A stretch of 64,000 nucleotides of DNA from Candidatus Latescibacterota bacterium (GTDB lineage: Bacteria; Latescibacterota; UBA2968). Under the pieces are notes generated by a model, which was given only the letters and a program-made list of their open reading frames with translations, was not told the DNA's origin and ran no database searches. Numbering within the stretch: the stretch's first letter is position 1; the number at the start of each line of letters is the position of its first letter. Shown piece by piece: positions 27,883 through 58,984 of the stretch. A program made the translations under genes and the position numbers. The stretch lies in the NCBI GenBank assembly GCA_965198115.1, contig OZ240241.1:6560001-6624000 (forward strand), written 5' to 3'.

Positions 27883-29181
27883 TCAGTTGCCGAGGGCGCT
27901 TAGGAAGGAATCTGCGTTGTCCAGCTCGGCCTTCCCAGCATCGACGAGCACATCCATGCCGCGACTCTGGAGGGAGAAGCGATCCAGGGCTTCGCTGTCG
28001 TAGTCGGGAACCTGGTCGTCGCCACCCGAACCGAATTCGAGCTGACGACAGATGATGTCGGCGATATGAATGATACAGACCAGGCGCGCGTATCGTCGAC
28101 AGTCGCCGGGCGAGTGATGATGAAGAATCGTGTTGAGGTAGTGGTCGGAGAACTTCCATTCCTGTGCGAGTTGACCTCCCACTTCGGCGTGGGAGAGACC
28201 GAGAATCTTTTGCTCCGATTCGTATAGGCTCAGGCCTGCAGATTCGATGGTCTGGAAGACGGCCTGATAGTAGTCGCCGAAGTAACGGTCGAGGATGATT
28301 TTGCCCAAATCGTGGAGCATTCCGGCGAGGAAGGACGTTTCGACCTCGGTTTGTAACTTCTGGGCGCACGCCCGTGCGATGAAGGCCGTCCCGACTGAGT
28401 GACGCCAGAACTCCTTCAGGTCGAGACCTCCTCCGTCTTCGTAGTTCCCGAGCTTTTCGAAGACCTGGGCAGCCATGACCAGGTTGGCTACCTCCTCCAG
28501 CCCGAGAAGGGTCACGGCGAGGGCAATCGAATTGGTCGGTTTCTTGAAGCCGTAGTAGGAAGAGTTGACCAGCTTGAATACCGTGGCCAGAAGCCCAGGG
28601 TCGAGCTGGAGCTGTTGGGCAATGTCGTCGCTGGACGAATCGTCGCTTTTTGCGAGCTTGAGGATCTCGGCGTGGGTGGCCGGAAAAGAGGGCAGTCCTT
28701 CGATCGACTTGACCCGGGTGAGGAAATCTTCGCCCTCCTCATCGCTCGGGTCTTCCTGGATCGCCTCGTCGTCCGAATCGGCGGGCGTGCCGTTCTGCGG
28801 AGCGGGCGCCAGCTGCGCGAGCGCAGACTCGATTCGAGTACGAAGATCGCTGGGTTTGAAAGGTTTCGCGAGGTAGGAGGAAGCGCCTGCTTTGGCTGCC
28901 TGGATGATGGTGTCGGGGGACGGCTTGGCGGAGGTCAGGATGACGGGGACGTCGATGTATTTGGGGCTAATCCCGACGATTTCCGCCAGTCGGAGGCCCG
29001 AGCCCGGGATGTCCAGACCGGCCACGATGACGTTCGGCTCCTGCTCGGCCAACGTTTGAACGGCCGTGACTCCGTCGTGGGCAAGGACGGTGCCATATCT
29101 GCCGGTCAGCATTTTTGTGATGAGACCGGCAAGACGTTCTTTGTCGACGATCAGGACCTTATGGGGGAGAGTGTCTTCCAA
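27883..29181 (-). CDS. Receiver-HDOD domain protein
   Basis: N-terminal REC (YLAKPF); HDOD motifs LPSFP, FWRHS, LHDLGK. Confidence 0.92.
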   Translation of the reverse strand: MEDTLPHKVLIVDKERLAGLITKMLTGRYGTVLAHDGVTAVQTLAEQEPNVIVAGLDIPGSGLRLAEIVGISPKYIDVPVILTSAKPSPDTIIQAAKAGASSYLAKPFKPSDLRTRIESALAQLAPAPQNGTPADSDDEAIQEDPSDEEGEDFLTRVKSIEGLPSFPATHAEILKLAKSDDSSSDDIAQQLQLDPGLLATVFKLVNSSYYGFKKPTNSIALAVTLLGLEEVANLVMAAQVFEKLGNYEDGGGLDLKEFWRHSVGTAFIARACAQKLQTEVETSFLAGMLHDLGKIILDRYFGDYYQAVFQTIESAGLSLYESEQKILGLSHAEVGGQLAQEWKFSDHYLNTILHHHSPGDCRRYARLVCIIHIADIICRQLEFGSGGDDQVPDYDSEALDRFSLQSRGMDVLVDAGKAELDNADSFLSALGN

Positions 29182-39672: not shown

Positions 39673-41060
39673 GGTGTTGTGCCTATCGTAGTTGAAACTT
39701 AGAGGGCTCCAAACTTACGTTGGGTAGACGTGTAGGAGCGTATACCCGTAAGAAAGGAGCCCAGATGGAGAAGCTATTTGTAGGCGATGGTGAAGTCAAG
39801 GTTGAGGGCGATGTCATCGATTTGGAGACGCGTTTGTCGGTGATCCAGGCGTTGATCCCGTTGGGTCTGGAGGCAGTGGCAGACCTCCTCCAGCAGGAGG
39901 TCGAGCAGCTCGCAGGCGTTCGGTATGCGCGCAAAGGTTCGGAGCAGACGCATCGTCGGTGGGGAAGCCAGAAGGGATCCGTGTATCTGATGGACCAGAA
40001 GCTCCCGTTAGACGTTCCCCGGGTGCGCGACGTCGAGGCCGACGCAGAGGTTTCCCTGGCTGCATACCGGGCTCTACAGACGCCCAAGAAGACGGACGAG
40101 GGGCTGTTGCTTCGTGTTCTCAAGGGGATCTCGTGCCGCAACTACAAGGCCTGTGCCGAATCGGTTCCAGAAGCGTTTGGTATCTCAGCGTCCTCCGTCT
40201 CGCGGCGGTTCATCAAAGCCACCGCGAAGAAGCTGAAGCAGTTCCAGGAGCGTCCCCTCGACGACTACGGCTTCGTGACCCTGTTCATTGACGGAAAGAG
40301 CTTTGCCGACGAAGAGATCGTGATCGCTCTGGGGGTCACGATGGACGGCCAGAAGATCCCCCTGGGCTTCGTCGAATCGGCGACGGAGAACGAACGGATC
40401 TGCCGCCAGCTGATCCAGGACCTCATCCGGAGAGGCCTGTGCTACGACCAGGGCCTTCTCGTTGTGCTTGACGGCTCAAAGGGACTCCGCAGTGCTGTCA
40501 CCAAAGCCCTCAAAGGGTATGTGCGCGTGCATCGCTGTCAGTGGCACAAGCGCGAGAATGTCGTCAGCTATCTCCCGGAGAGGGAACGTCCAAGAGTTCG
40601 ACGGAAGCTCCAGAAAGCCTATGACTGCGACACCTACGAGGAGGCAAAGGCCGCACTCGAATCACTTAAACCCGAACTGAAGCTGATGAATCAGTCTGCC
40701 GTAACGAGCCTCGAGGAAGGCCTGGAGGAAACCCTGACCCTCCACCGGCTGGGTATGCTCCCATTCCTGAAACGAAGCTTCCGAACCACCAACTGCATCG
40801 AAGCCCTCAACAGCAGGACCGGCGAGCTCACTCGGAAGGTCAGACGCTGGAACAACTCTCCCCAGAGACACAGATGGGTGGCTGCCGCACTCCTCGACAT
40901 CGAACCTCGCCTGCGACGCGTGAGCGGATACAAACATCTTCCCCTACTCAGGCAAGCACTGAACAAAGATCTGAATCTCGACAACGAACAGAATGCTCAA
41001 AAGAGAGCCTGACCAAACTACGGGGCCCGATGAGTTTTCAACTGACTATGGGACTTGACC
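39673..41060 (+). mobile_element. IS256-family insertion sequence, complete
   Basis: 9-bp target duplication CTGTTCGAC (39664-39672, 41061-41069); imperfect terminal IRs sharing AGTTGAAA. Confidence 0.93.
39765..41012 (+). CDS. IS256-family transposase
   Basis: FIDGK, LDGSKGL, RCQWHKREN, TTNCIE. Confidence 0.95.
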   Translation: MEKLFVGDGEVKVEGDVIDLETRLSVIQALIPLGLEAVADLLQQEVEQLAGVRYARKGSEQTHRRWGSQKGSVYLMDQKLPLDVPRVRDVEADAEVSLAAYRALQTPKKTDEGLLLRVLKGISCRNYKACAESVPEAFGISASSVSRRFIKATAKKLKQFQERPLDDYGFVTLFIDGKSFADEEIVIALGVTMDGQKIPLGFVESATENERICRQLIQDLIRRGLCYDQGLLVVLDGSKGLRSAVTKALKGYVRVHRCQWHKRENVVSYLPERERPRVRRKLQKAYDCDTYEEAKAALESLKPELKLMNQSAVTSLEEGLEETLTLHRLGMLPFLKRSFRTTNCIEALNSRTGELTRKVRRWNNSPQRHRWVAAALLDIEPRLRRVSGYKHLPLLRQALNKDLNLDNEQNAQKRA

Positions 41061-43397: not shown

Positions 43398-43522
43398 TCG
43401 AACCCAGGTGAAGATCAGCGCGCTGGCGGCGAGGCAATTGCCAGACCGAAGATGTTGATGGCCGAATAGACCTTGTGGCGAAGCAGATATCGGATGGCTA
43501 CGAGGAGCTGATTTCGGAGCAT
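43398..43522 (-). pseudogene. N-terminal 42-codon fragment of a MacB/FtsX permease
   Basis: MLRNQLLVAIRYLLRHKVYSAINIFGLAI-(1-nt deletion)-LAASALIFTWVR. Confidence 0.85.
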
Positions 43523-43578
43523 GACGAGGTCCCCTGCTTGAAATGCGCAGCCTGAACAAAGAGATAGATACACTGTCA

Positions 43579-43594
43579 GGCAATGCCTGTGCCA
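43579..43594 (-). promoter_or_regulatory. Sigma54 -24/-12 promoter
   Basis: TGGCACAGGCATTGCC on the minus strand, 57 bp upstream of the ATG at 43522. Confidence 0.75.
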
Positions 43595-43657
43595 CACCTT
43601 ATTTTGCCCGTTTTCGAGTGATTCCGCGCCTCGGATTGTCCGATTGTGGGACGACAC

Positions 43658-43786: not shown

Positions 43787-44101
43787 TCAGTCCTCCAGGA
43801 CCTCCGTCACGCGCATCCCGAAGATCGACTTTGCCCGCGATGGCCATTGTCTTCCGTGTGTCGTTCCTCCCGGCACGTCGACGACGACCACCTCTCCTCG
43901 GGCGACGAGGGCATCATTCGCACGAAGGTCGGCCGTGTAGTGACCGTCCTGATTCAGTTTCGAGTCGGGGAGTTCGATCAGCGAACCTTCGGAACAGATC
44001 ATGAAGAAGTCGATTGGGAGTCTCCTCCGACCCAACTCGATTCGGACATCCGTAGGAACATCTGATGCCGCACTCTCGGTCTGTTTCGTTTCTTCGGACA
44101 C
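43787..44101 (-). CDS. FliN/SpoA-like protein
   Basis: VRIELGR, LVARGEVVVV, FGMRVTEV. Confidence 0.8.
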   Translation of the reverse strand: MSEETKQTESAASDVPTDVRIELGRRRLPIDFFMICSEGSLIELPDSKLNQDGHYTADLRANDALVARGEVVVVDVPGGTTHGRQWPSRAKSIFGMRVTEVLED

Positions 44102-44112
44102 GACTCTTCCTC

Positions 44113-45369
44113 CTACATCAGTGGTTCGCGTTCGCCTCTGACGACCACAATCTTTCCGTTGGCGTCGAGGTCCCGAACGATATAGACGATCTTAATCTGA
44201 ACATCTTCGACATCGCCGACTCGAACCATTCCAAGTCCGGCGGCCGCCGATTCGTAGGCCTTCTGTCTGTCTTCACTGAGATTCTCGACGAATCGACGTG
44301 TGATCCTTTCTTCAGCGCCCCGGAGGGCAAGCGCCAGATCCTCGGGATCGGTCTCATTCAGGACCGCCCTGAGATCGCTGTCGGCAAGGTTGGCGATGTC
44401 GTTAAAAGTGAACATCTGTAGCCGGACCTTTTCGGCCAGATCTGCATCTACGTCGTCGAGCGTTTCCAGGCACGCCTTTTCTGTCGAGCGTCCCGAGTAA
44501 TTCAAAATCTGCGCGAGAACTTCCGGTCCTCCGGTCGACGTGCTGCCCGAAGTCAGTGCGTCTATCTCCTCGGCGAGATTCTCCTCCAGACGCTGCATGA
44601 CTTCAGGAGATACGCGCTCGAGCGTGGCGATTCTACCCGTGACGTCACTTTGGATCTTCTCGGGCAATCCATTCAGAATAGCCGCGGCTTTCAGGCTGTC
44701 GATCTGGGAAAGAATCAGCGCGAGGGTTTGAGGGTGTTCCTTTTGAAATTTGGAGATCAGCTGCTCGTGATCGATATCATTCATGCGTCGGAACACTTCA
44801 CCCGTTGTTCCCTTGATTTCGGCCATCAACGCGAATCGTCGATTGCCACGAGCGCTGTAAAGGAAGCCGTGGACAAAGTCGCCACCCCCTCGTGAGCCGA
44901 CGTTTCCTCCGACGAGACACGCTCTTGCTTCCTCGATGACTTCCACTTTCCGCGTTGCGGGAATCGATTTCACGTCGAGGATGTATGCGGAAACTGCACG
45001 CAGATCATCGTCATCGCAATGCTGAAAGACTCTCCCTGCGAGGAGCGGCCCGAGATGCATTGCGACGATTGCGGCCCGTTCGAGGCCTTCCTGCCCGATC
45101 TCGGTGCCCGTTCGCGTCGCATCCAGGAAATCCTGAAGCAGGCGGGCGACAAGGCTCGGTTGCCGCTCGGCAATCTGCTCGAGCGAGTCGTCAGGGGCGA
45201 TCGTGTCGCTGACGGGCGTCGCCCATTTCGAAGGAACCGCGGCCTCTTCGGGCCGGGAAGCACTTCGTGCCGTTTGACGATCCGGATGAAGATGAAAGTC
45301 CATAGGTGGAGCCTCACCGGATACGTTCAGGACGGGTGGCTGCCAAGTCTGGACAGAGGATTCGGACAT
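44113..45369 (-). CDS. fliG: FliG-like flagellar switch protein with extended N-terminus
   Basis: RAAIV..LG, EHPQ, MFTF, VRVGDVE. Confidence 0.85.
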   Translation of the reverse strand: MSESSVQTWQPPVLNVSGEAPPMDFHLHPDRQTARSASRPEEAAVPSKWATPVSDTIAPDDSLEQIAERQPSLVARLLQDFLDATRTGTEIGQEGLERAAIVAMHLGPLLAGRVFQHCDDDDLRAVSAYILDVKSIPATRKVEVIEEARACLVGGNVGSRGGGDFVHGFLYSARGNRRFALMAEIKGTTGEVFRRMNDIDHEQLISKFQKEHPQTLALILSQIDSLKAAAILNGLPEKIQSDVTGRIATLERVSPEVMQRLEENLAEEIDALTSGSTSTGGPEVLAQILNYSGRSTEKACLETLDDVDADLAEKVRLQMFTFNDIANLADSDLRAVLNETDPEDLALALRGAEERITRRFVENLSEDRQKAYESAAAGLGMVRVGDVEDVQIKIVYIVRDLDANGKIVVVRGEREPLM

Positions 45370-45388
45370 GGTGTGCCTCGTCTTGGCG

Positions 45389-45679
45389 TCAGGATTTTGG
45401 AAAACCGTTAACACGAATGGCCAGGTTGTCGCCTACAACGACGACTTCGCCGAAGCAGAAGAGACGACCATTTGCGAGCACTTCGACAGGTGTTCCGGTC
45501 AGCTTGTCGGTCTCGATCAGATCGCCGCTGTTGACGCTCAGGACTTCTTCGATCGTCATGCGTGCCTCTCCGAGCACGACGACCACGTCGAGTTCGGCGC
45601 TGCCAATCCGCCCGAGTCTCGATTCGACATCGGGGAGCCAGTTCGGATCGATCCGTTCTTGGGTGGCTGATTCTGCCAT
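45389..45679 (-). CDS. fliN: Flagellar switch protein FliN-like
   Basis: LDVVVVLGEARMTI, PVEVLANG, GEVVVV. Confidence 0.85.
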   Translation of the reverse strand: MAESATQERIDPNWLPDVESRLGRIGSAELDVVVVLGEARMTIEEVLSVNSGDLIETDKLTGTPVEVLANGRLFCFGEVVVVGDNLAIRVNGFPKS

Positions 45680-45699
45680 TGGATTCTCCTGGATGCAGT

Positions 45700-47163
45700 C
45701 TAGTCGTGAAAGTAGCGTGATTTCTCAGAGGGTCTGACTGCCCTCTCCACGCGAACGGCGTGTCGCCCTCTGGGAGAAGCCCCTGCCGTTCCGACGAAGA
45801 GCGGGTCTCCATCGAGATGAACACTCGCCGGCTGGTCTTCGAGGTTGCCGATCGTAAGAATGTCCCCCACACGGGCGTGGTTCAGTGCATCCGCAGTCAT
45901 TCTCGTCCTACCGAGGACCGTTGTCAGGTCGATCTCGGTTCCCTTCAGGGCATCCAATCGATCCTGTCTTTGTTGCGATGACAGTCTCTTTCGATACCCC
46001 CGGCTTGCCCAGTTCTGCACGTTCAGGACCGACTTGGCCGGTTCGAGTGTGAAGTAGGGATAGCAGAGGTTCAGCATACCGGACGACCGGGCGCTGTTGA
46101 TCTCCATCGCTATGAGAACGACCGTGTCTGACGGCGCTGCGATCTGCATGAACTCCGGATTGGTCTCCAATTCGGCATCGGAAACTCTGAATTTGAGGAG
46201 GGGTGCCCACGTGGCCTCGAGGTCGGCGAGGACCTGGGTGATGATCGGATTCATCACGCCCCGCTCGACCGGGGTTGTCGGACGACGTTCGTACGGAAGC
46301 CTCGGCCGGTTACCGCCGAACGCACGTGTCACGAAGTCGTAGACGATGGGCAGGCTGAAATTGAGTATTGCCGGGCCGTGCAGGGGTTCGACCGTGAATG
46401 TGTAGGACACTGTGGGATTGCTGAGGTAGTCGATGAATTCGCCGTAGGTTGTCTGGTCGACGAAGGCGATATCGCAATCGACGATCGACTGCTGTGCTCG
46501 TGAAAAGGTGGAGGCGACCATCCGGGCGAAGTTCGAGTGCAAGTTCTCGAGCGTGCGCATCTGGTCTTTCGATACGCGCGAGGGATGCCTGAAGTCGTAG
46601 GTGAGTGTCAGGCGTCTGCTTTTCTTCCGGTCTTCGTCACGCTTTTGACGGTTCTCCTGTCGTGCCTGGATGGTCTCCAGCGGATCGGGCCCGACAAGCG
46701 CTTTCTCGGGATAGACGAGGCGATCGATGTCCGACTGGCTGACCTGCTCGGGCAGCGTATCCCAATCCTCTTTAGACGTCGCATTCGGTAGGTTCGGCTT
46801 TCGATCGAGCCAACGGGCCCGAATCCGAAGATCGCTCTCTTTCCACGGAGCCAGAAGGAGATCCGTCGCACCCACTCTCAGCAGGTCAATGACATCCTTC
46901 CTCGAACTGGACTGAGAGAGCACGAGGACGTGCGTCCTTCGGTAGGGATGCTTGTTGATGGACCGAATCTCTTCGATCAGGTGACGCCTCGCGTCATCTC
47001 CCTCGAATTCCAGATCGGTAACGAGGACCAGGGGGCCGTTCCACTCGATATCTGTGAGGGCATCGTCGAGCGTTTTCGTCAATTTGCGCCCCAGGTAGGC
47101 CTCAGTCAGGGCCTGGTAAGCCCGTCCTGCTTCGCCATTCGCATTGCCTGCTGTTACGATCAT
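45700..47163 (-). CDS. fliM: Receiver-like domain fused to FliM
   Basis: SQSDIDRL, YDFRHPSRVSKDQMRTL, ETNPEF, NLCYPY. Confidence 0.88.
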   Translation of the reverse strand: MIVTAGNANGEAGRAYQALTEAYLGRKLTKTLDDALTDIEWNGPLVLVTDLEFEGDDARRHLIEEIRSINKHPYRRTHVLVLSQSSSRKDVIDLLRVGATDLLLAPWKESDLRIRARWLDRKPNLPNATSKEDWDTLPEQVSQSDIDRLVYPEKALVGPDPLETIQARQENRQKRDEDRKKSRRLTLTYDFRHPSRVSKDQMRTLENLHSNFARMVASTFSRAQQSIVDCDIAFVDQTTYGEFIDYLSNPTVSYTFTVEPLHGPAILNFSLPIVYDFVTRAFGGNRPRLPYERRPTTPVERGVMNPIITQVLADLEATWAPLLKFRVSDAELETNPEFMQIAAPSDTVVLIAMEINSARSSGMLNLCYPYFTLEPAKSVLNVQNWASRGYRKRLSSQQRQDRLDALKGTEIDLTTVLGRTRMTADALNHARVGDILTIGNLEDQPASVHLDGDPLFVGTAGASPRGRHAVRVERAVRPSEKSRYFHD

Positions 47164-47218
47164 CGTTCAGCTCCGTGTCCAGCTGCGTGGAGTAAGGAAC
47201 TCGGACTGATTCCGCTGC

Positions 47219-47647
47219 TCATCCGGTGCGTTGACCGAGTCCTGGTTCGGTCCAGATGCTGAGCTCGGGTCGCGACCTGATCTGTTCACGAACTCGCCCC
47301 TCCGCTTCGTAGCCGGAGCGTGCCGTGTCCCGATCTCGCATTTCTTCGACCGTCTGTCGAAGTTCGCGAACCTCGCTCGCCAATCCCTTGACGATGAGGG
47401 CCAGGTCTTCAACGCTGGTGCCCGATTCGCGTTTTGGCAATTGCGCTTCGATACGCGACCAGAGATCCCCGGGCGCTTCAACGGCGTCGGCATTCGACGC
47501 GATCTCCCAGGCGGTCATTTGTGATTCGTAGTCCTGACGGCAGCGGTCGCACTCGGCGAGATGGGATTCCACGTCCCGTCGCTGGTCGTGGCCGAGTTCG
47601 TCGTCGATGTAGGCGGTGATGTTCTGTTCGCAGGTGAAGCAGTTCAT
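47219..47647 (-). CDS. Zinc-binding anti-sigma factor (zf-HC2)
   Basis: MNC...YIDDEL...HLAECDRC; coiled coil and no TM. Confidence 0.85.
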   Translation of the reverse strand: MNCFTCEQNITAYIDDELGHDQRRDVESHLAECDRCRQDYESQMTAWEIASNADAVEAPGDLWSRIEAQLPKRESGTSVEDLALIVKGLASEVRELRQTVEEMRDRDTARSGYEAEGRVREQIRSRPELSIWTEPGLGQRTG

Positions 47648-47782
47648 GACATTGTCCGTTGGTTGTGAAGCCGCTCGCCCTTCGATACGGCGATCTGAGC
47701 ACTCCGGAAGGGTGTCGTGATGTCACTTACCAGACGTCTACTCAGGATGAGCGGTCGTTGTCTTACTGAACGATCCATTGAG

Positions 47783-48339
47783 CTACCCATTGAGATAGGT
47801 TGAAAGGGCGTCGCGGACTCTCTTGCGTGCCCTGTGCATTCTCATTTTGACGGCGTCCTCGGTGCATTCGAGGACGTCTGCGATCTGGCGATAGCGAAGA
47901 CCTTCGACCGTTCCGAGGATGAAGACGATTCTGAGTGACTCGGTGAGGTGGTCGATGGCAGATTGCATTCGCCGATTGGTCTCCTTGCGCACGAGCTGCT
48001 CTTCGGGTGTTGGCCCCGGTCGATGGGGACAATCGGGTCGTCCTCGTCGTCGAAGCTCCTCGACTCTGGGCGACCACGTCGTGCTGCTTTGAGACAACGA
48101 TTGACCGCGATTCGATATAGCCACGTCCCGAAGGATGATTCTGCACGAAAACGCTGTATGCCTTTGAACGCATCGATAAAGGCTTCCTGAGTGAGGTCGG
48201 CCGCGTCTTCCGCATTGCCCGTCATATGTCGGCAGAGGGCGAAAATGCGATCGCTGTGTAGATCGTAAACCTGGCGGAAGGCAGAGGGGTCGCCTTGCTG
48301 ACAGGCGGCGATCAATGTGAGTTCGACGTGCGTTTCCAC
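47783..48339 (-). CDS. ECF sigma factor, frameshifted in the G4 run at 48014-48017
   Basis: Region 2 (DLTQEAF, TWLYRIAVN) and region 4 (YRQIADVL..VKMRMHRAR) lie in different frames. Confidence 0.88.
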
Positions 48340-48424
48340 GCAGTGTGTCTCCGCGGTGGCTGTCGGTTCTGTTCATTTAGAGCCAGTATACGTCTGAAGG
48401 TAACACCGCAATCGGAAAGGCGCA

Positions 48425-53812: not shown

Positions 53813-55700
53813 GTGCTTGTCTTTGGGCTCACAGGAACGTTGGTGTACGGATTCGAGGAGATGCGTTATTGCGGACGTGTTTCCTCGGCCGACGAGGAAG
53901 GGAGCGGCTACAAGACCCGGCAGTACGCGCCCGACCGGAAGGTCGATGTACTCCACATCAAGATCGACGTGACACCCGATTTCAGAAGGCGTACGATCGG
54001 CGGCTCGACCGAGCTGACTTTCAAGCCGATCGCGAAGCCCCTGTCGGATCTGTTGCTTCACGCGGCGGACCTGACAGTGAAATCGGTGCGGTCCGACCAC
54101 GCAATTCAGGGCCACGATGTGAACGAAGAAGGCATCGTGGTCACGTTCCAGGAACCGATTCCCCCAGGAGAGACCGCCGTTGTGACGGTTCTCCATCACG
54201 CCGAGCCCAAAGAAGGCATCTACTTTCGCACGCGTGAAATGGGTTATCCCGTCGGCGACGAGCACCTCTGGTCGCAGGGCGAGACGCACGAATCACGACA
54301 TTGGTATCCGAGCTTTGACTACCCGAACGAGCGCTCAACCTCCGAAGTGATTTGTCACGTGCCCGAGGCCATGACAGTGCTCTCGAATGGCGTTCAACTG
54401 TCGGACGTGGTGGAGTCGGGCGTGCGAACCGTCCACTGGCGCCAAGACATTCCACACGTGAACTACCTGATCGCGCTCGTGGCGGGCCACTTCGAGAAGC
54501 TCGAGGCTGCGCACGGAGATCTTCCGCTCGGATTTTACGTGCAGCCCTCCTACAAAGCCGAAGCACCCAGGTCATTCGACGGAATAGAGGACATAATAGC
54601 CTTCTTGGAGGAGGCCACGGGTGTTTCTTTTCCGTGGGCCCAGTACAACCAGGTAACCTGCTTCGATCACTTCGGTGGGATGGAGAACACGACGCTAACG
54701 ACGCTCTATGTCGAAACGCTGCATCGCTCTGAAACGGAGACGCTGAGAGACAGTCGTTGGATCGTGGCCCACGAGCTGGCGCATCAGTGGTTTGGCTGTT
54801 TTCGTTTCCCGCGAAGCTGCGCTTCAAGGGAGACGGATGGGTATCGACCACGAAATCGAAATTTCGGATCGATCGCACGATTTCTATGTGCCGTTGAAGA
54901 AGAAGCCGGAGATCGTAAGGTTCGACCCTGATTACACGCTGCTTGCGGAGGTTTCGTTCAACAAGCCCAGGTTGCTTCTGGATGCCCAGCTCATCGATTG
55001 GGATGACGTCGTTGGTCGAATGCGTGCCGCCGACGCACTTGGTTCGAAAGACGACAAGAAATCCGTTGAGCTTCTTGGTTCGGTGCTGCGGGAAGATCCC
55101 TTCTACGGGGTCAGGATCCGTGCCGCGAAGGCACTGGCCAAAATAAGGACGCCTGAGGCCCTGGCCGCTCTGATCGCTTCGGTCGACCAGCCGGACGCCC
55201 GTGCCAGAGAGGCCGTCATGATTGGCATCGGTGCGTTCTACCGGCGTGAGGCCGAGCGGGCGTCGCACGATGCGCTCCTCGGTGAAAAGAACCCGCTACT
55301 CATCGCGCGTGCGGTCCAGAATCTGGGAAAGTATCCTAGCTCCCGAACACGGAAGGCGGTGCTCGACCATCTCAATCGGCTCTCTTATCGTGGGTACATT
55401 GCCCGAGGTGCCATCCAGGCGATCCATACGCTGCAAGACCCAGCCTACATCAAACCGCTGCAGAAGACCCTACCGGGTCTCGAGAAGTCGATACACCCCT
55501 TCTACTTCACCCGTGCACTGAACACCCTCGGCCACATTGCGAAGAACGAAGAGGATCGAAGCAAGGTGAGGAGATTCGTGACCGGGTACGTGAATCATCC
55601 ACGTGAACGGATACAGATCGGTGCGCTTCGGGCGTTGGGTACCTTGGGCGATCCCGCGGCCATCCCCGTCGTTCAGTCGTTGGCTGGCCAGGAATGCTGA
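53813..55700 (+). pseudogene. M1 aminopeptidase with HEAT repeats, internally deleted and 3' truncated
   Basis: GGMEN and HELAH, then a frame break at ~54797; HEAT region abuts the transposase. Confidence 0.85.
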
Positions 55701-56907
55701 AGTCGATCGTCTCCTCGATGAGCTGATCAAGAACTGTGACGGTCCCGATGACCTACTGGGCGAGAAAGGTCTGCTGAAGCAACTGACTGCCGGGCTGGTG
55801 GAGCGGATGCTCGAAAGCGAGATAACCGACCACCTGGGCTACGAGAAGCACGATTCTGACGGTAAGAACAGTGGTAACTCCCGCAACGGCAAGACTCCGA
55901 AGACACTGAAGACCGACCGTGGTGCGATCCCGATCGAAGTGCCTCGGGACCGCAATGGTGAGTTCGAGCCCCAGATCGTCAGAAAGCGCCAGAGACGGTT
56001 CGACAGGTTTGATGACACGATCATCTCGCTGTATTCCCGTGGGATGACGACTCGAGCGATTCAGGAGCACCTGAAGGAGCTCTACGGGGTCGATGTCTCT
56101 CCCTCGCTGCTCTCCAGTGTGACTGATGATGTCATCGAGGAGGTCAAGGCCTGGCAGTCCAGACCTCTGGACACCATCTATCCGATCGTCTATCTGGACG
56201 CGATCCGCGTCAAGATTCGAGACGATGGAAGCGTCACGAACAAGGCCGTCTACCTTGCGTTGGGCGTTAATCTATCAGGAAACAAAGAGCTCTTAGGCCT
56301 TTGGACGGCTCAGAACGAAGGCGCGAAGTTCTGGATGTCGGTCCTGACCGAGCTCCAGAACCGTGGCGTCAACGATATCTTCCTGGCCTGTGTAGATGGG
56401 CTCAACGGCTTCCCTGAAGCGATTGAAGCCGTCTTCCCGAGGACAGATGTTCAACTGTGCATCGTCCATATGGTGCGGAACAGCTTGAACTACGTCTCCT
56501 GGAAGAACCGCAAAGAAGTCGCCCGAGACCTCAAAGCGATCTACCAGTCCGCCACACTTCGTAAGGCCGAGAACCAACTGGAGAAGTTCTCTGTGAAGTG
56601 GGACAACACCTACTCGATGATCGGTCGGTCCTGGCGTGAACACTGGGAGCACATCACCCCGTTCTTCGCCTACCCACCAGAGATCCGGAAGGTGATCTAC
56701 ACGACGAACGCCATCGAGTCAATGAACGCATCGCTCCGGAAAGTCACGAAGAACAGAGGCGCGTTCCCGAATGATCAGGCCGCCATCAAACTCCTGTATC
56801 TGGCGATCCGAAACATCTCCAAACGATGGACCCGGCCACTGAACGATTGGAATGGGGCCATCAACCGGTTCGCCATCATGTTCGAAGATCGTGTCCCGTT
56901 AAAGTAA
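55684..56907 (+). CDS. IS256-family transposase (start codon lost or CTG)
   Basis: NSRNG, VPRDR, CVDGLNGF, CIVHMVRNS, YTTNAIES. Confidence 0.93.
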   Translation: MARNAEVDRLLDELIKNCDGPDDLLGEKGLLKQLTAGLVERMLESEITDHLGYEKHDSDGKNSGNSRNGKTPKTLKTDRGAIPIEVPRDRNGEFEPQIVRKRQRRFDRFDDTIISLYSRGMTTRAIQEHLKELYGVDVSPSLLSSVTDDVIEEVKAWQSRPLDTIYPIVYLDAIRVKIRDDGSVTNKAVYLALGVNLSGNKELLGLWTAQNEGAKFWMSVLTELQNRGVNDIFLACVDGLNGFPEAIEAVFPRTDVQLCIVHMVRNSLNYVSWKNRKEVARDLKAIYQSATLRKAENQLEKFSVKWDNTYSMIGRSWREHWEHITPFFAYPPEIRKVIYTTNAIESMNASLRKVTKNRGAFPNDQAAIKLLYLAIRNISKRWTRPLNDWNGAINRFAIMFEDRVPLK

Positions 56908-56942
56908 TCGTGTCACCAGTTACACAAATCTCTGGACACACC
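55684..56942 (+). mobile_element. IS256-family element lacking its left end
   Basis: Right end gttacacaaatctctggacacacc; no matching left IR or ATG. Confidence 0.85.
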
Positions 56943-57053
56943 CGTGGCGAGTCGGCTGATCCCGGGAATCGTGACCCCCCTTCCTTCAACTTCCTCCGGA
57001 GACGATCACGCCGTTGTGATGACGGGCCATTCCTTGCCCAACAGAGGTGGTGT

Positions 57054-58984
57054 GTGAATTCACCGACATCCTCGATCTTCTCGTCAGTATTTCAAGAGCT
57101 TCATCTTCTTGAGTCAGATGCTTCTCTGTTTTTCGTGGGTTCTGGCGACGGCGGGTTTCTCCTTTTTCCCACGACGAGGATGAAGACGTTCCGGACGGAG
57201 ACGGATACGATCCACCGGCTACAAGACCGTCTGACACGGGGCCGCGGCGATCGGCCGATTCTGTCGAGTGAACCTTCGCTCGTTCGAACGGTCCTCGCGG
57301 GCAACGACCATCCAAACGTAGCCATCCTGCCGATTTTGGTCGATGACGTCCTGGTTGGCTCTCTGAACGTGGGTGTCCCGCAACAATCATCGTCTGAAGA
57401 AATGGACGCGTTACGCGCCTGCGCAGAGAGGATCGGCAGTCTCGTTCGTACGTCGGTTCCCACGGATTCTGTTCGGCGACGTAACCTTCAGCTCAATCTG
57501 ATCAACCGTCTCGGCAGGCAGGACGTCTGGCAGATGGAACCGGAATCATTCCTCGATCTGGCTGTCGTTTCGATTCGCGAGGGACTCGATTACTACAACG
57601 TATCGATCTTCATGCTCGAAGAGGACAGGTCCCATTTGAGACTCGTTTCGCACGCCGGTGCGTATCGGGGCCGGGTGTCGAGAGGATTCAGGCAGAGCAT
57701 CGCGCTAGGGATCATTGGGTGGGTCGTTCGGAACGAACAGATGATGCTGGCGAACGATGTCACTCAGGAGCCCAACTATCTGGCCGTGGAGGGGTTGACG
57801 ACCGCATCCGAAATCTGTCTGCCGATCACGATCGAGGGTCGGGTCGAAGGGGTGTTGAACGTGGAAAGCGATCAAGTCGATGCGTTCGATGATGGCGACG
57901 TTGTTGCCCTGGAGGCCTTATCGCAACAGGTGGCAGAGGTCATTCAGATGCGGCGTAAGAGCGAAGCGTTCGACAGCCTGCGGGAAGAAGTAGCGGATCG
58001 CCACCGATTCGGGGATCTGCTCGGCCGGGGCGCCGGCATGCGTCGGATCTTCGAGCTGATTCAAACGGTGTCGACGAGCGAGCTGCCGGTTCTCGTTCGT
58101 GGAGAGACTGGAACGGGAAAAGAACTGGTCGCTCGCGCCATTCATCGCGAAAGCGAACGTCACGACCGTTCGTTCGTAGCCGTGAACTGCGCGGCTCTTC
58201 CGGAGAGCTGTTCGAGGACGAGCTGTTCGGACACGAGCGGGGTGCCTTCACTGGCGCTGAGAGGCAGAGACTGGGAAAAGTAGAGCTGGCCCAGCGTGGT
58301 ACGCTCTTTCTGGATGAAGTGGGAGAGATTCCGTATGCCATGCAGGCCAAACTCCTTCGAGCGATCGCCGAAAAGCGGATCACGCGTGTGGGGGGCGAAA
58401 AGGAAATCGAAGTGGATGTGCGGATCATATCAGCGACGAACCGAACGCAGGAGGAGCTGGAACGAGAAGATGCGTTCCGCCAGGATCTGTATTTCAGGTT
58501 GAATGCGGTGCAGATCGACATTCCGCCGCTCCGAGATCGATCGGACGATGTTCCCCTTTTAGCTGCCTATTTCCTGAAGGAAAATATTGAGCGATACGAA
58601 AAGCCGATCGAGCATATCGATCCGGATGTGATGTCCCGTCTTATGGACTATCCGTGGCCCGGCAACGTGAGGGAGCTGGAAAACGTGATTGGGCGAGCGG
58701 TGCTGATGGAGAACGGGAAGACGCTCTCACAGGTCGATCTTCGAGAGGCCCGACGGAAAGAGCAGGACGCCTACAGCCCTCGAGATGTGGGGGACGGGAC
58801 GTTGGAGGAGGTGTGTGGGCGCGTGATTGCCGAGGTCGAACGAGAGTATCTTGGCAATCTGCTGGTCCGTACGAGGGGTAACGTTTCGGAGGCGGCCAGA
58901 CAGGCGGGAATCACCCGACGTACCCTCTACAACAAGCTGCAGCTGTATGGAATGAAGAGGGAGGACTACATCCCGTCACAATGA
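57054..58984 (+). CDS. GAF-domain sigma54-dependent activator (NtrC/Fis family), frameshifted at ~58205
   Basis: GAF; GETGTGKE; ELFGHERGAFTGA in the second frame; WPGNVRELEN; Fis HTH. Confidence 0.9.

Follow-up and report, generated by a model that had tools for sequence, protein, structure and literature searches.

A conserved, separately regulated cassette of flagellar switch genes in one class of Candidatus Latescibacterota and its possible role as a decoy switch

The 64,000-nucleotide stretch of DNA analyzed here (the window) lies on a single 8.43-Mb contig, rated 100 % complete, of a Candidatus Latescibacterota bacterium (assembly GCA_965198115.1, contig OZ240241.1, positions 6,560,001 to 6,624,000). 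Six genes at 43787-48339, all co-oriented on the minus strand and separated by gaps of 12-136 bp, encode an extracytoplasmic function (ECF) sigma factor, a soluble zinc anti-sigma factor, a receiver-FliM fusion (REC-FliM), FliN, FliG and a FliN-like protein, a gene set that had been proposed in an initial annotation and that Pfam and gene calls bear out. The six genes are one operon and represent a conserved, separately regulated cassette of one class of the phylum. Its FliG is predicted to occupy the FliF-binding socket with a segment of its own, and the torque residue R281 is lost; the cassette may therefore constitute an inducible, FliF-uncoupled and torque-poor decoy switch that acts on the cell's own motor in flagellated relatives, a reading that we advance tentatively, with slightly less than even confidence. 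The copy in the window is probably a dormant relic, since export and stator genes have been deleted from its genome and its ECF gene is broken.

The cassette FliG, its switch partners and their regulator

The accessory FliG (44113..45414, minus strand, likely start ATG at 45369) contains FliG_N, FliG_M and FliG_C (Pfam), scores 235 bits with TIGR00207 (above the cut-off) and carries an N-terminal extension, in which residues 71-100 (45115..45204, minus strand) are likely a fused copy of the C-terminal, FliG-binding helices of FliF. In 30 of 30 aligned extended cassette FliGs, the segment just before FliG_N matches the FliF C-terminal tail, and in the copy at locus L130 it is nearly identical to it. 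When 13,001 open reading frames (ORFs) were searched with a hidden Markov model (HMM) of 10 FliF tails, cassette FliGs ranked directly below the true FliFs. The reverse HMM, built from 27 cassette FliG rows with the three most FliF-like rows omitted and run against 159,304 six-frame segments, recovered the FliF tail of the window genome at E 3e-4 as the sole non-cassette match under E 0.5, and hhalign aligned the segment with FliF tails at a probability of 93-95 % (93.8 % without the three most FliF-like rows). Like a FliF tail, the segment is predicted to form two short helices broken at a proline and is likely homologous to the FliF end. AlphaFold2 (AF2, 57-row alignment) placed these helices at residues 78-84 and 86-99, with a confidence (pLDDT) of about 95 for residues 71-100 that may, however, profit from likeness to solved FliF-FliG structures; the preceding N-terminus is disordered and of low confidence. 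The fused tail copy is thus predicted to fill the socket through which FliG would otherwise bind the MS ring, much as canonical FliG_N co-folds with the FliF tail according to passages of PMC7355467. A PDB sequence search with the junction profile gave a FliF tail match that was not significant (E 0.62), and Foldseek, which cannot score a tail in cis, matched FliG chains.

Among six shortened cassette FliGs, three lack FliG_N (one of them also part of FliG_C) and two lack FliG_C; one further shortened copy starts at about the same point as those without FliG_N. Separately, a W-x-P motif (window 45280-45369) is conserved in 22 cassette FliG N-termini and retained even where FliG_N has been deleted. 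An origin of this motif from FliH was rejected (hhalign 1-5 %, no HMM cross-hit).

At the positions equivalent to K264, R281, D288, D289 and R297, the window FliG has R, D, S, A and R, in line with the loss of torque residues noted in the initial annotation; passages of PMC4030992 and PMC6079164 connect R281 with torque and D289 with the placement of stators. R281 is retained in one of the 25 cassette FliGs that have any residue at this position, as compared to 55 of 58 stand-alone FliGs (11 fragmentary or fused rows were removed before counting), and of the three stand-alone exceptions two have an arginine one place on and one is truncated. In the cassette copies, the position is occupied by an acid in 11/25 and by lysine in 6/25, whereas the neighboring charges are mostly kept, with lysine or arginine at 264 in 25/26, an acid at 289 in 18/26 and R297 in 22/26. 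Both acids (288/289) are lost in the window FliG and in its 76 %-identical homologue, and the EHPQ motif is retained by FliG in many relatives. A profile search of 1.84 billion representatives returned 67 matches, 65 of them similar to FliGs of the cassette set (two off-target repeat proteins were dropped). R281 was absent in 25 of the 27 matches covering the helix, a set that overlaps the 25 copies above, and about 19 of the 67 stop after FliG_M, some possibly being fragments. Taken as a sign of torque loss, the absence of R281 is suggestive only.

The REC-FliM fusion (45700..47163, minus strand; REC, FliM middle and SPOA domains by Pfam) is ordered as a receiver (46801-47163, minus strand), a FliM N-terminal CheY-binding peptide (46714-46743, minus strand, ahead of the FliM middle domain) and full FliM. 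The peptide has the motif described in passages of PMC5677366, and CheY binds the FliM N-terminus according to parts of PMC11087270. In the AF2 model, receiver and peptide helix reach a pLDDT of about 92. The window receiver is weak (E 9e-4, below the Pfam cut-off) and degenerate: its active-site set reads G, N, D, S, A-P, so that the phospho-accepting aspartate is kept and the acidic pair and lysine are gone, and a phosphorylatable CheY-type receiver was accordingly rejected for the window. The set is complete in five of 32 aligned rows, G041 and G012 among them, and many cassette FliMs have no receiver. A likeness to Caulobacter Cle proteins was dropped as well, because these bind the FliM peptide and the passages concerned describe no such peptide inside them. 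REC-FliM represents a naturally occurring form of the CheY-FliM-peptide complex, and it does so in a lineage of which many flagellated genomes show no cheW.

The operon is completed by FliN (45389..45679, minus strand, FliMN_C E 6e-20) and a further FliN-like (SPOA) gene that is divergent and contains an insertion (43787..44101, minus strand, FliMN_C E 4e-8); in relatives, one or two FliN-like genes sit after FliG. The canonical switch domain set is therefore complete in the window (FliG N/M/C, FliM middle and SPOA, FliN; Pfam), with FliM (212.5 against 219.6) and FliN (67.2 against 84.05) scoring below their family-model cut-offs. None of the five proteins downstream of the ECF factor has a transmembrane-like segment. 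As the initial annotation had stated, the window is free of fliF and of export, rod and mot genes, and it was matched only by FliG, FliM and FliN when 42 E. coli flagellar and chemotaxis queries were run against the whole genome.

The ECF factor (47783..48339, minus strand) consists of sigma-2 and sigma-4 only and shares 56-59 % identity with its unbroken orthologue in G041. It is intact in most relatives and split in the window genome by a frameshift near 48010-48035 that leaves Sigma70_r2 and r4_2 in different frames; in the same-genus relative G001, it carries an 84-nt in-frame deletion. The adjacent anti-sigma factor (47219..47647, minus strand, zf-HC2 E 1e-9) has the CxxC...HxxxCxxC pattern of soluble zinc anti-sigma factors, with cysteines and histidine invariant in 10 orthologues, followed by a conserved helical part. 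Its maximal hydropathy of 0.73 (19-residue window), as compared to 2.53 for FliF, identifies it as a soluble protein with no hydrophobic segment. Upstream of the ECF gene, a predicted autoregulatory promoter (GTTACC, 17-nt spacer, TCTAA; 48376..48405, minus strand) is kept in relatives: a motif of the type GTTACC-N17-TCTAA occurs at equal spacing and position in 17 of 19 cassette genomes, 12 of which had served to derive the pattern. The window motif is the only strong site in its genome, where shuffled controls give 6-9, and no genome-wide enrichment over a reversed control was found, so that a wider ECF regulon was rejected. The same motif precedes lone FliM-middle-domain genes in four of eight loci, and the regulon thus appears, as judged from these sites, to be small and centered on switch parts. 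The lone genes encode proteins of about 185 aa (L239, L233, L234, L238; L024:5994-6707).

Distribution, descent and the decaying host genome

The cassette recurs in relatives, and the neighborhood is accordingly conserved. The anti-sigma gene was found in 19 of 168 genomes of the phylum, all inside one class (132 genomes); these genomes are kin, and the counts given here are not independent observations. fliP is present in 60/168 genomes of the phylum and in 16 of the 19 with a cassette. The remaining three, namely the window genome, G043 (80 % complete) and G161 (92 %), all have rod genes and 5-8 fliG. The cassette was not found in 21 and 15 genomes of two genera without fliP, flhA and fliM, and when metagenomes were scanned for FliGs close to that of the window, only three distant loci emerged. 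cheW is present in 10/19 cassette genomes and gave no match in 9/19; a link of the cassette to chemotaxis was rejected, as no pattern emerged. In families f1 and f2, the gene order is ECF, anti-sigma, FliM with or without receiver, FliN, extended FliG and FliN, sometimes doubled, and in family f4 ECF, anti-sigma, FliN, FliN, FliG and FliM.

Flagellated genomes of the class carry 2-10 scattered fliG copies, whereas three genomes outside the class have one beside fliF (scattered fliG and main-cluster loci: L190-L200, L257-L286). In quick trees with subsampled stand-alone rows, a single clade was rejected both for the cassette FliGs (24/51 rows; approximately unbiased (AU) test, p 9e-61) and for the cassette FliMs (30/50 rows; AU p 7e-4), and each cassette group falls among the ordinary copies from the same family or order; paralog trees, proposed earlier as a check, thus reveal no cassette clade of its own. 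The ECF tree, in contrast, shows one group that follows the families (13 rows, 5 outgroup rows). From the two rejections and the single ECF group, we infer that an old regulator pair may have been restocked repeatedly with motor genes of the host, the resulting FliG in every case carrying the cap and lacking R281.

The window FliG and FliM form the longest branches of their clades. Rough dN/dS estimates against G001 (0.03-0.20, with dS of 1.2-1.9 near saturation) point to purifying selection until fairly recently, and close homologues of the window FliG with 76-79 % identity conserve cap and core.

The flagellar system of the window genome is in decay. Whole-genome searches found eight FliG-middle matches, five FliM, nine FliN/FliM-C, one fliF and eight flagellin loci (four of them split), and hence the further fliG, fliM and fliN copies as well as the flagellar genes, here decayed, for which a check had initially been suggested. 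Frameshifts disrupt fliF, fliA and the ordinary fliM, and two of four full-length ordinary fliG are broken. motAB, fliPQR, flhAB and cheAW are missing: flhA, fliP and motB were not found by family search, and E. coli queries for fliQ, fliR, motA, cheW, cheR and receptors gave no match in this genome. As judged by comparison with G001, a deletion of about 14.8 kb appears to have taken flgD, flgE, motA, two motB, fliPQR, flhB and flhA, and fliK is joined to the flhF end at a 4-base microhomology (G000:C1:4520151, L032). About seven of some 60 non-flagellar orthologues are also split, and insertion sequence (IS) copies run into the hundreds (236, 136, 69 and 19 near-full copies for four repeat probes).

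With these losses and its ECF gene frameshifted, the window cassette is probably silent. The initial annotation had left open whether the frameshift is an error or decay; it is probably decay, as contigs of two public runs match the region gap-free and exclude an assembler slip, although both runs stem from one sample that may be the assembly's own source and hence give no independent support. The module had also been called an orphan, which holds in so far as it reflects both the deletion of about 15 kb here and the departure of fliG and fliM from the main cluster in this order. In the five relatives mapped, this cluster has neither gene, so that it is usual in the order for switch genes to lie apart from fliF. 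A second broken cassette copy without ECF (L034:6418-11624, G000:C1:6266417-6271623) consists of fliM, fliN, an FGE-like::capped FliG (frameshifted and truncated), fliN and a FliM-middle::capped-FliG fusion.

A candidate decoy switch and its alternatives

In the proposed mechanism, a signal sensed by the zinc anti-sigma factor would free the ECF factor to transcribe the cassette and, in some genomes, presumably also a lone FliM-middle-domain gene. The capped FliG is predicted to fold without FliF and to assemble with cassette FliM and FliN off the MS ring. Because the core sequences of the cassette proteins remain similar to FliG and FliM of the host, the products could cross-bind native FliM/FliN, stators and CheY-type regulators without passing torque to the rotor, with stator contact conceivably made through the mostly kept D289, K264 and R297 equivalents. 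Where the tethered receiver is intact, its phosphorylation may gate the complex, with the FliM peptide acting in cis. In flagellated relatives, the decoy complex would likely slow or stop the cell's own motor, and the cassette thus suggests a way of stopping a motor by spare rotor parts. The alternative of a decoy or clutch raised in the initial annotation is thereby favored, together with the separate regulation of a conserved cassette, over the non-flagellar system that it had put first. Intact copies such as those of G041 and G012 are more informative here than the window copy, which is probably decaying and matters less.

Several points weigh against this reading. Of 42 fliP-positive genomes of the class (many of them drafts), 26 gave no anti-sigma match, and the cassette is a decayed remnant in the flagellated G001, which makes it dispensable. 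The FliF-tail HMM missed about half of the cassette FliGs including the window copy, for which the tail assignment, though likely, derives from family alignment and AF2 only. Motors with neutral R281 changes stay motile, as passages report for R281V in Salmonella (PMC7564593), and R301A is described in part of the literature as behaving normally in Vibrio; given these changes and the lysine found in six copies, "torque-dead" would go beyond the data and is not shown. A full FliG-FliM-FliN set with FGE-like and REC fusions furthermore exceeds the needs of a clutch, EpsE being one protein, and the kinase-fused FliG of sister cassettes points to signaling. The tracking of host sequence may equally reflect easy recruitment from the 2-10 fliG copies per genome. 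A decoy role is thus a proposal drawn from sequence and predicted structure.

The best-surviving alternative, which we consider unlikely but worth serious attention, is a free cytoplasmic C-ring-like scaffold or sensor whose output is signaling on flagellar or cell state instead of braking, for example, back to the anti-sigma factor or to two-component proteins. It would account for a complete subunit set with a self-capped FliG and draws on sister operons in which the same parts are rewired for signaling: G097, G105 and G093 encode an NtrC-like sigma-54 activator, FliM, two FliN and FliG(N,M) fused to a hybrid histidine kinase (split in G093), and a FliG-kinase fusion is also present in G150. 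These sister cassettes (L296:12016-18325, L297:5624-12677, L298:565-9979, L293:938-4942) have two or three fliN, one of them FGE-fused, and sometimes a REC-SpoIIE gene. Elsewhere, FliG occurs joined to a SpoIIE phosphatase, either FliG or FliN repeatedly bears an FGE-like domain, and the profile matches ending after FliG_M would fit a scaffold as well. In the ECF cassette itself, however, neither a kinase nor any other output domain is present, most copies have retained FliG_C as well as the acids facing the stator, and no feedback link to the anti-sigma factor was found. In its general form, namely that Ca. Latescibacterota have made the C ring into a modular membrane-free signaling machine in which capped FliG nucleates a cytoplasmic FliG-FliM-FliN ring, switched by a tethered receiver and wired in one cassette to an ECF/anti-sigma pair and in the other to a histidine kinase and a sigma-54 activator, the idea is likewise rather unlikely. 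The FliF MS ring is regarded as the template for C-ring assembly, and a natural FliG with its own FliF tail offers a ready test of assembly and switching without a membrane template.

More doubtful is an alternative working rotor, in which real FliF displaces the tethered tail and the cassette gives the motor a further switch that differs in gearing or has a direction bias activated in cis. Many relatives do keep all FliG domains, EHPQ and most charges, their genomes contain two motB paralogues, a built-in REC could replace CheY in the 9/19 cassette genomes without a cheW match, and single R281 substitutions can be tolerated according to the passages cited above. Yet the tail copy is tethered and predicted to be co-folded, some copies have lost FliG_N or FliG_C entirely, and R281 is reversed to an acid in 11/25.

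It is improbable that the system is non-flagellar in the strict sense and was retained for a use of its own once the flagellum had been lost, as the initial annotation implied. The four fli-like ORFs of the window are intact while fliF, fliA, the ordinary fliM and half of the full-length ordinary fliG are broken, and the homologues with 76-79 % identity conserve cap and core; four intact ORFs are unremarkable, however, when only about 7/60 other genes are split. Every genome bearing the anti-sigma gene has flagellar genes, no cassette was found in any searched genome without them, and cassette FliG and FliM follow the host motor genes, while the window ECF is frameshifted and the window FliG and FliM have the long branches described above. 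Of the self-contained, membrane-independent complex originally envisaged, what stands is a FliG predicted to be independent of the MS ring; that the genes track the host motor speaks against the rest. Least probable, and for the family largely refuted, are duplicates without function that stem from the fliG expansion across the class and came to lie behind an unrelated ECF pair. The flagellated genomes with their 2-10 fliG each, and the window genome with its many broken genes and IS copies in the hundreds, would suit them, but gene set, promoter motif, cap and R281 loss are conserved across three families, the motif precedes lone FliM-domain genes and dN/dS is well under 1.

Known systems, further fusions and neighboring features

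The cassette shares domains, fold, EHPQ and the FliM N-terminal peptide with the canonical C ring (Salmonella 8UMD/8WO5; FliF-tail:FliG_N 5TDY/5WUJ). It differs in a tail that is in cis without the membrane part of FliF, in the loss of R281, in fused REC or FGE-like domains, in ECF/anti-sigma control and in its site away from the flagellar cluster. Of a canonical working switch, it lacks the full set of torque-helix charges, and the window genome lacks an intact MS ring, stator and export gate. The sister cassettes of the same class share an own fliM, two fliN, an N-extended FliG, an FGE-like fusion and a dedicated regulator; in these, however, a hybrid kinase replaces FliG_C and a sigma-54 activator the ECF pair.

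A second complete flagellar system of the lateral or Fla2 type has its own fliF, export and stator genes. No such genes lie beside any mapped cassette, and this possibility was rejected; one fliF was found in 5/5 relatives tested and one full flhA per genome in 12/53. An injectisome sorting platform (SctQ) was rejected as well, since SctQ models scored far below cut-off and the genome has no FHIPEP gene. Borrelia burgdorferi, compared by description only, resembles the present case in having a second FliG with one flagellar system (FliG1/FliG2). As far as passages of the review PMC7225975 go, fliG1 is dispensable for flagellar synthesis and asymmetrically localized, FliG1 is given a torque role, and no own FliM/FliN, FliF-tail cap or ECF control is described for it. 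The proposed outcome resembles that of B. subtilis EpsE and E. coli YcgR, for which parts of PMC13432727 describe post-assembly rotor-stator uncoupling; these are, however, unrelated single proteins that bind FliG, whereas the cassette candidate consists of the switch subunits themselves. Laboratory FliF-FliG fusions (Salmonella, Vibrio) indicate, according to passages of PMC7355467, that a covalent FliF tail is compatible with folding and ring assembly, but they keep membrane-anchored FliF and are motile, whereas the cassette keeps about 30 tail residues only. Such a cassette was not described in the literature searched by title and abstract, where gene tables for metagenome-assembled genomes in supplements might nonetheless list the genes.

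Unusual fusions of switch parts were also observed elsewhere (L139:1277-5395, L295:4423-7194, L235:3914-5446), comprising FliG_C in a propeller-SpoIIE protein, a 924-aa FliM-FliN-FliG single chain and a FliM-fragment::GNAT fusion. Proteins of a separate ECF family (L079:3472-17313, L245:3762-4949; P0128-P0247) carry captured C-terminal domains: about 20 have the FliM middle domain, and others have pieces of FliG, a fragment of FlhA or PheRS-like, ankyrin or further domains.

Just past the cassette, a short frame at window 43415-43600 (minus strand), without a Pfam match and probably a fragment, resembles what we take to be the start of an ABC-permease gene. Further afield, the window contains two Mutator-family transposases (39720-41012 and 55603-56907), a REC-HDOD protein (27883-29181) and a GAF-sigma-54 activator whose ATPase domain is cut short (56826-58283).

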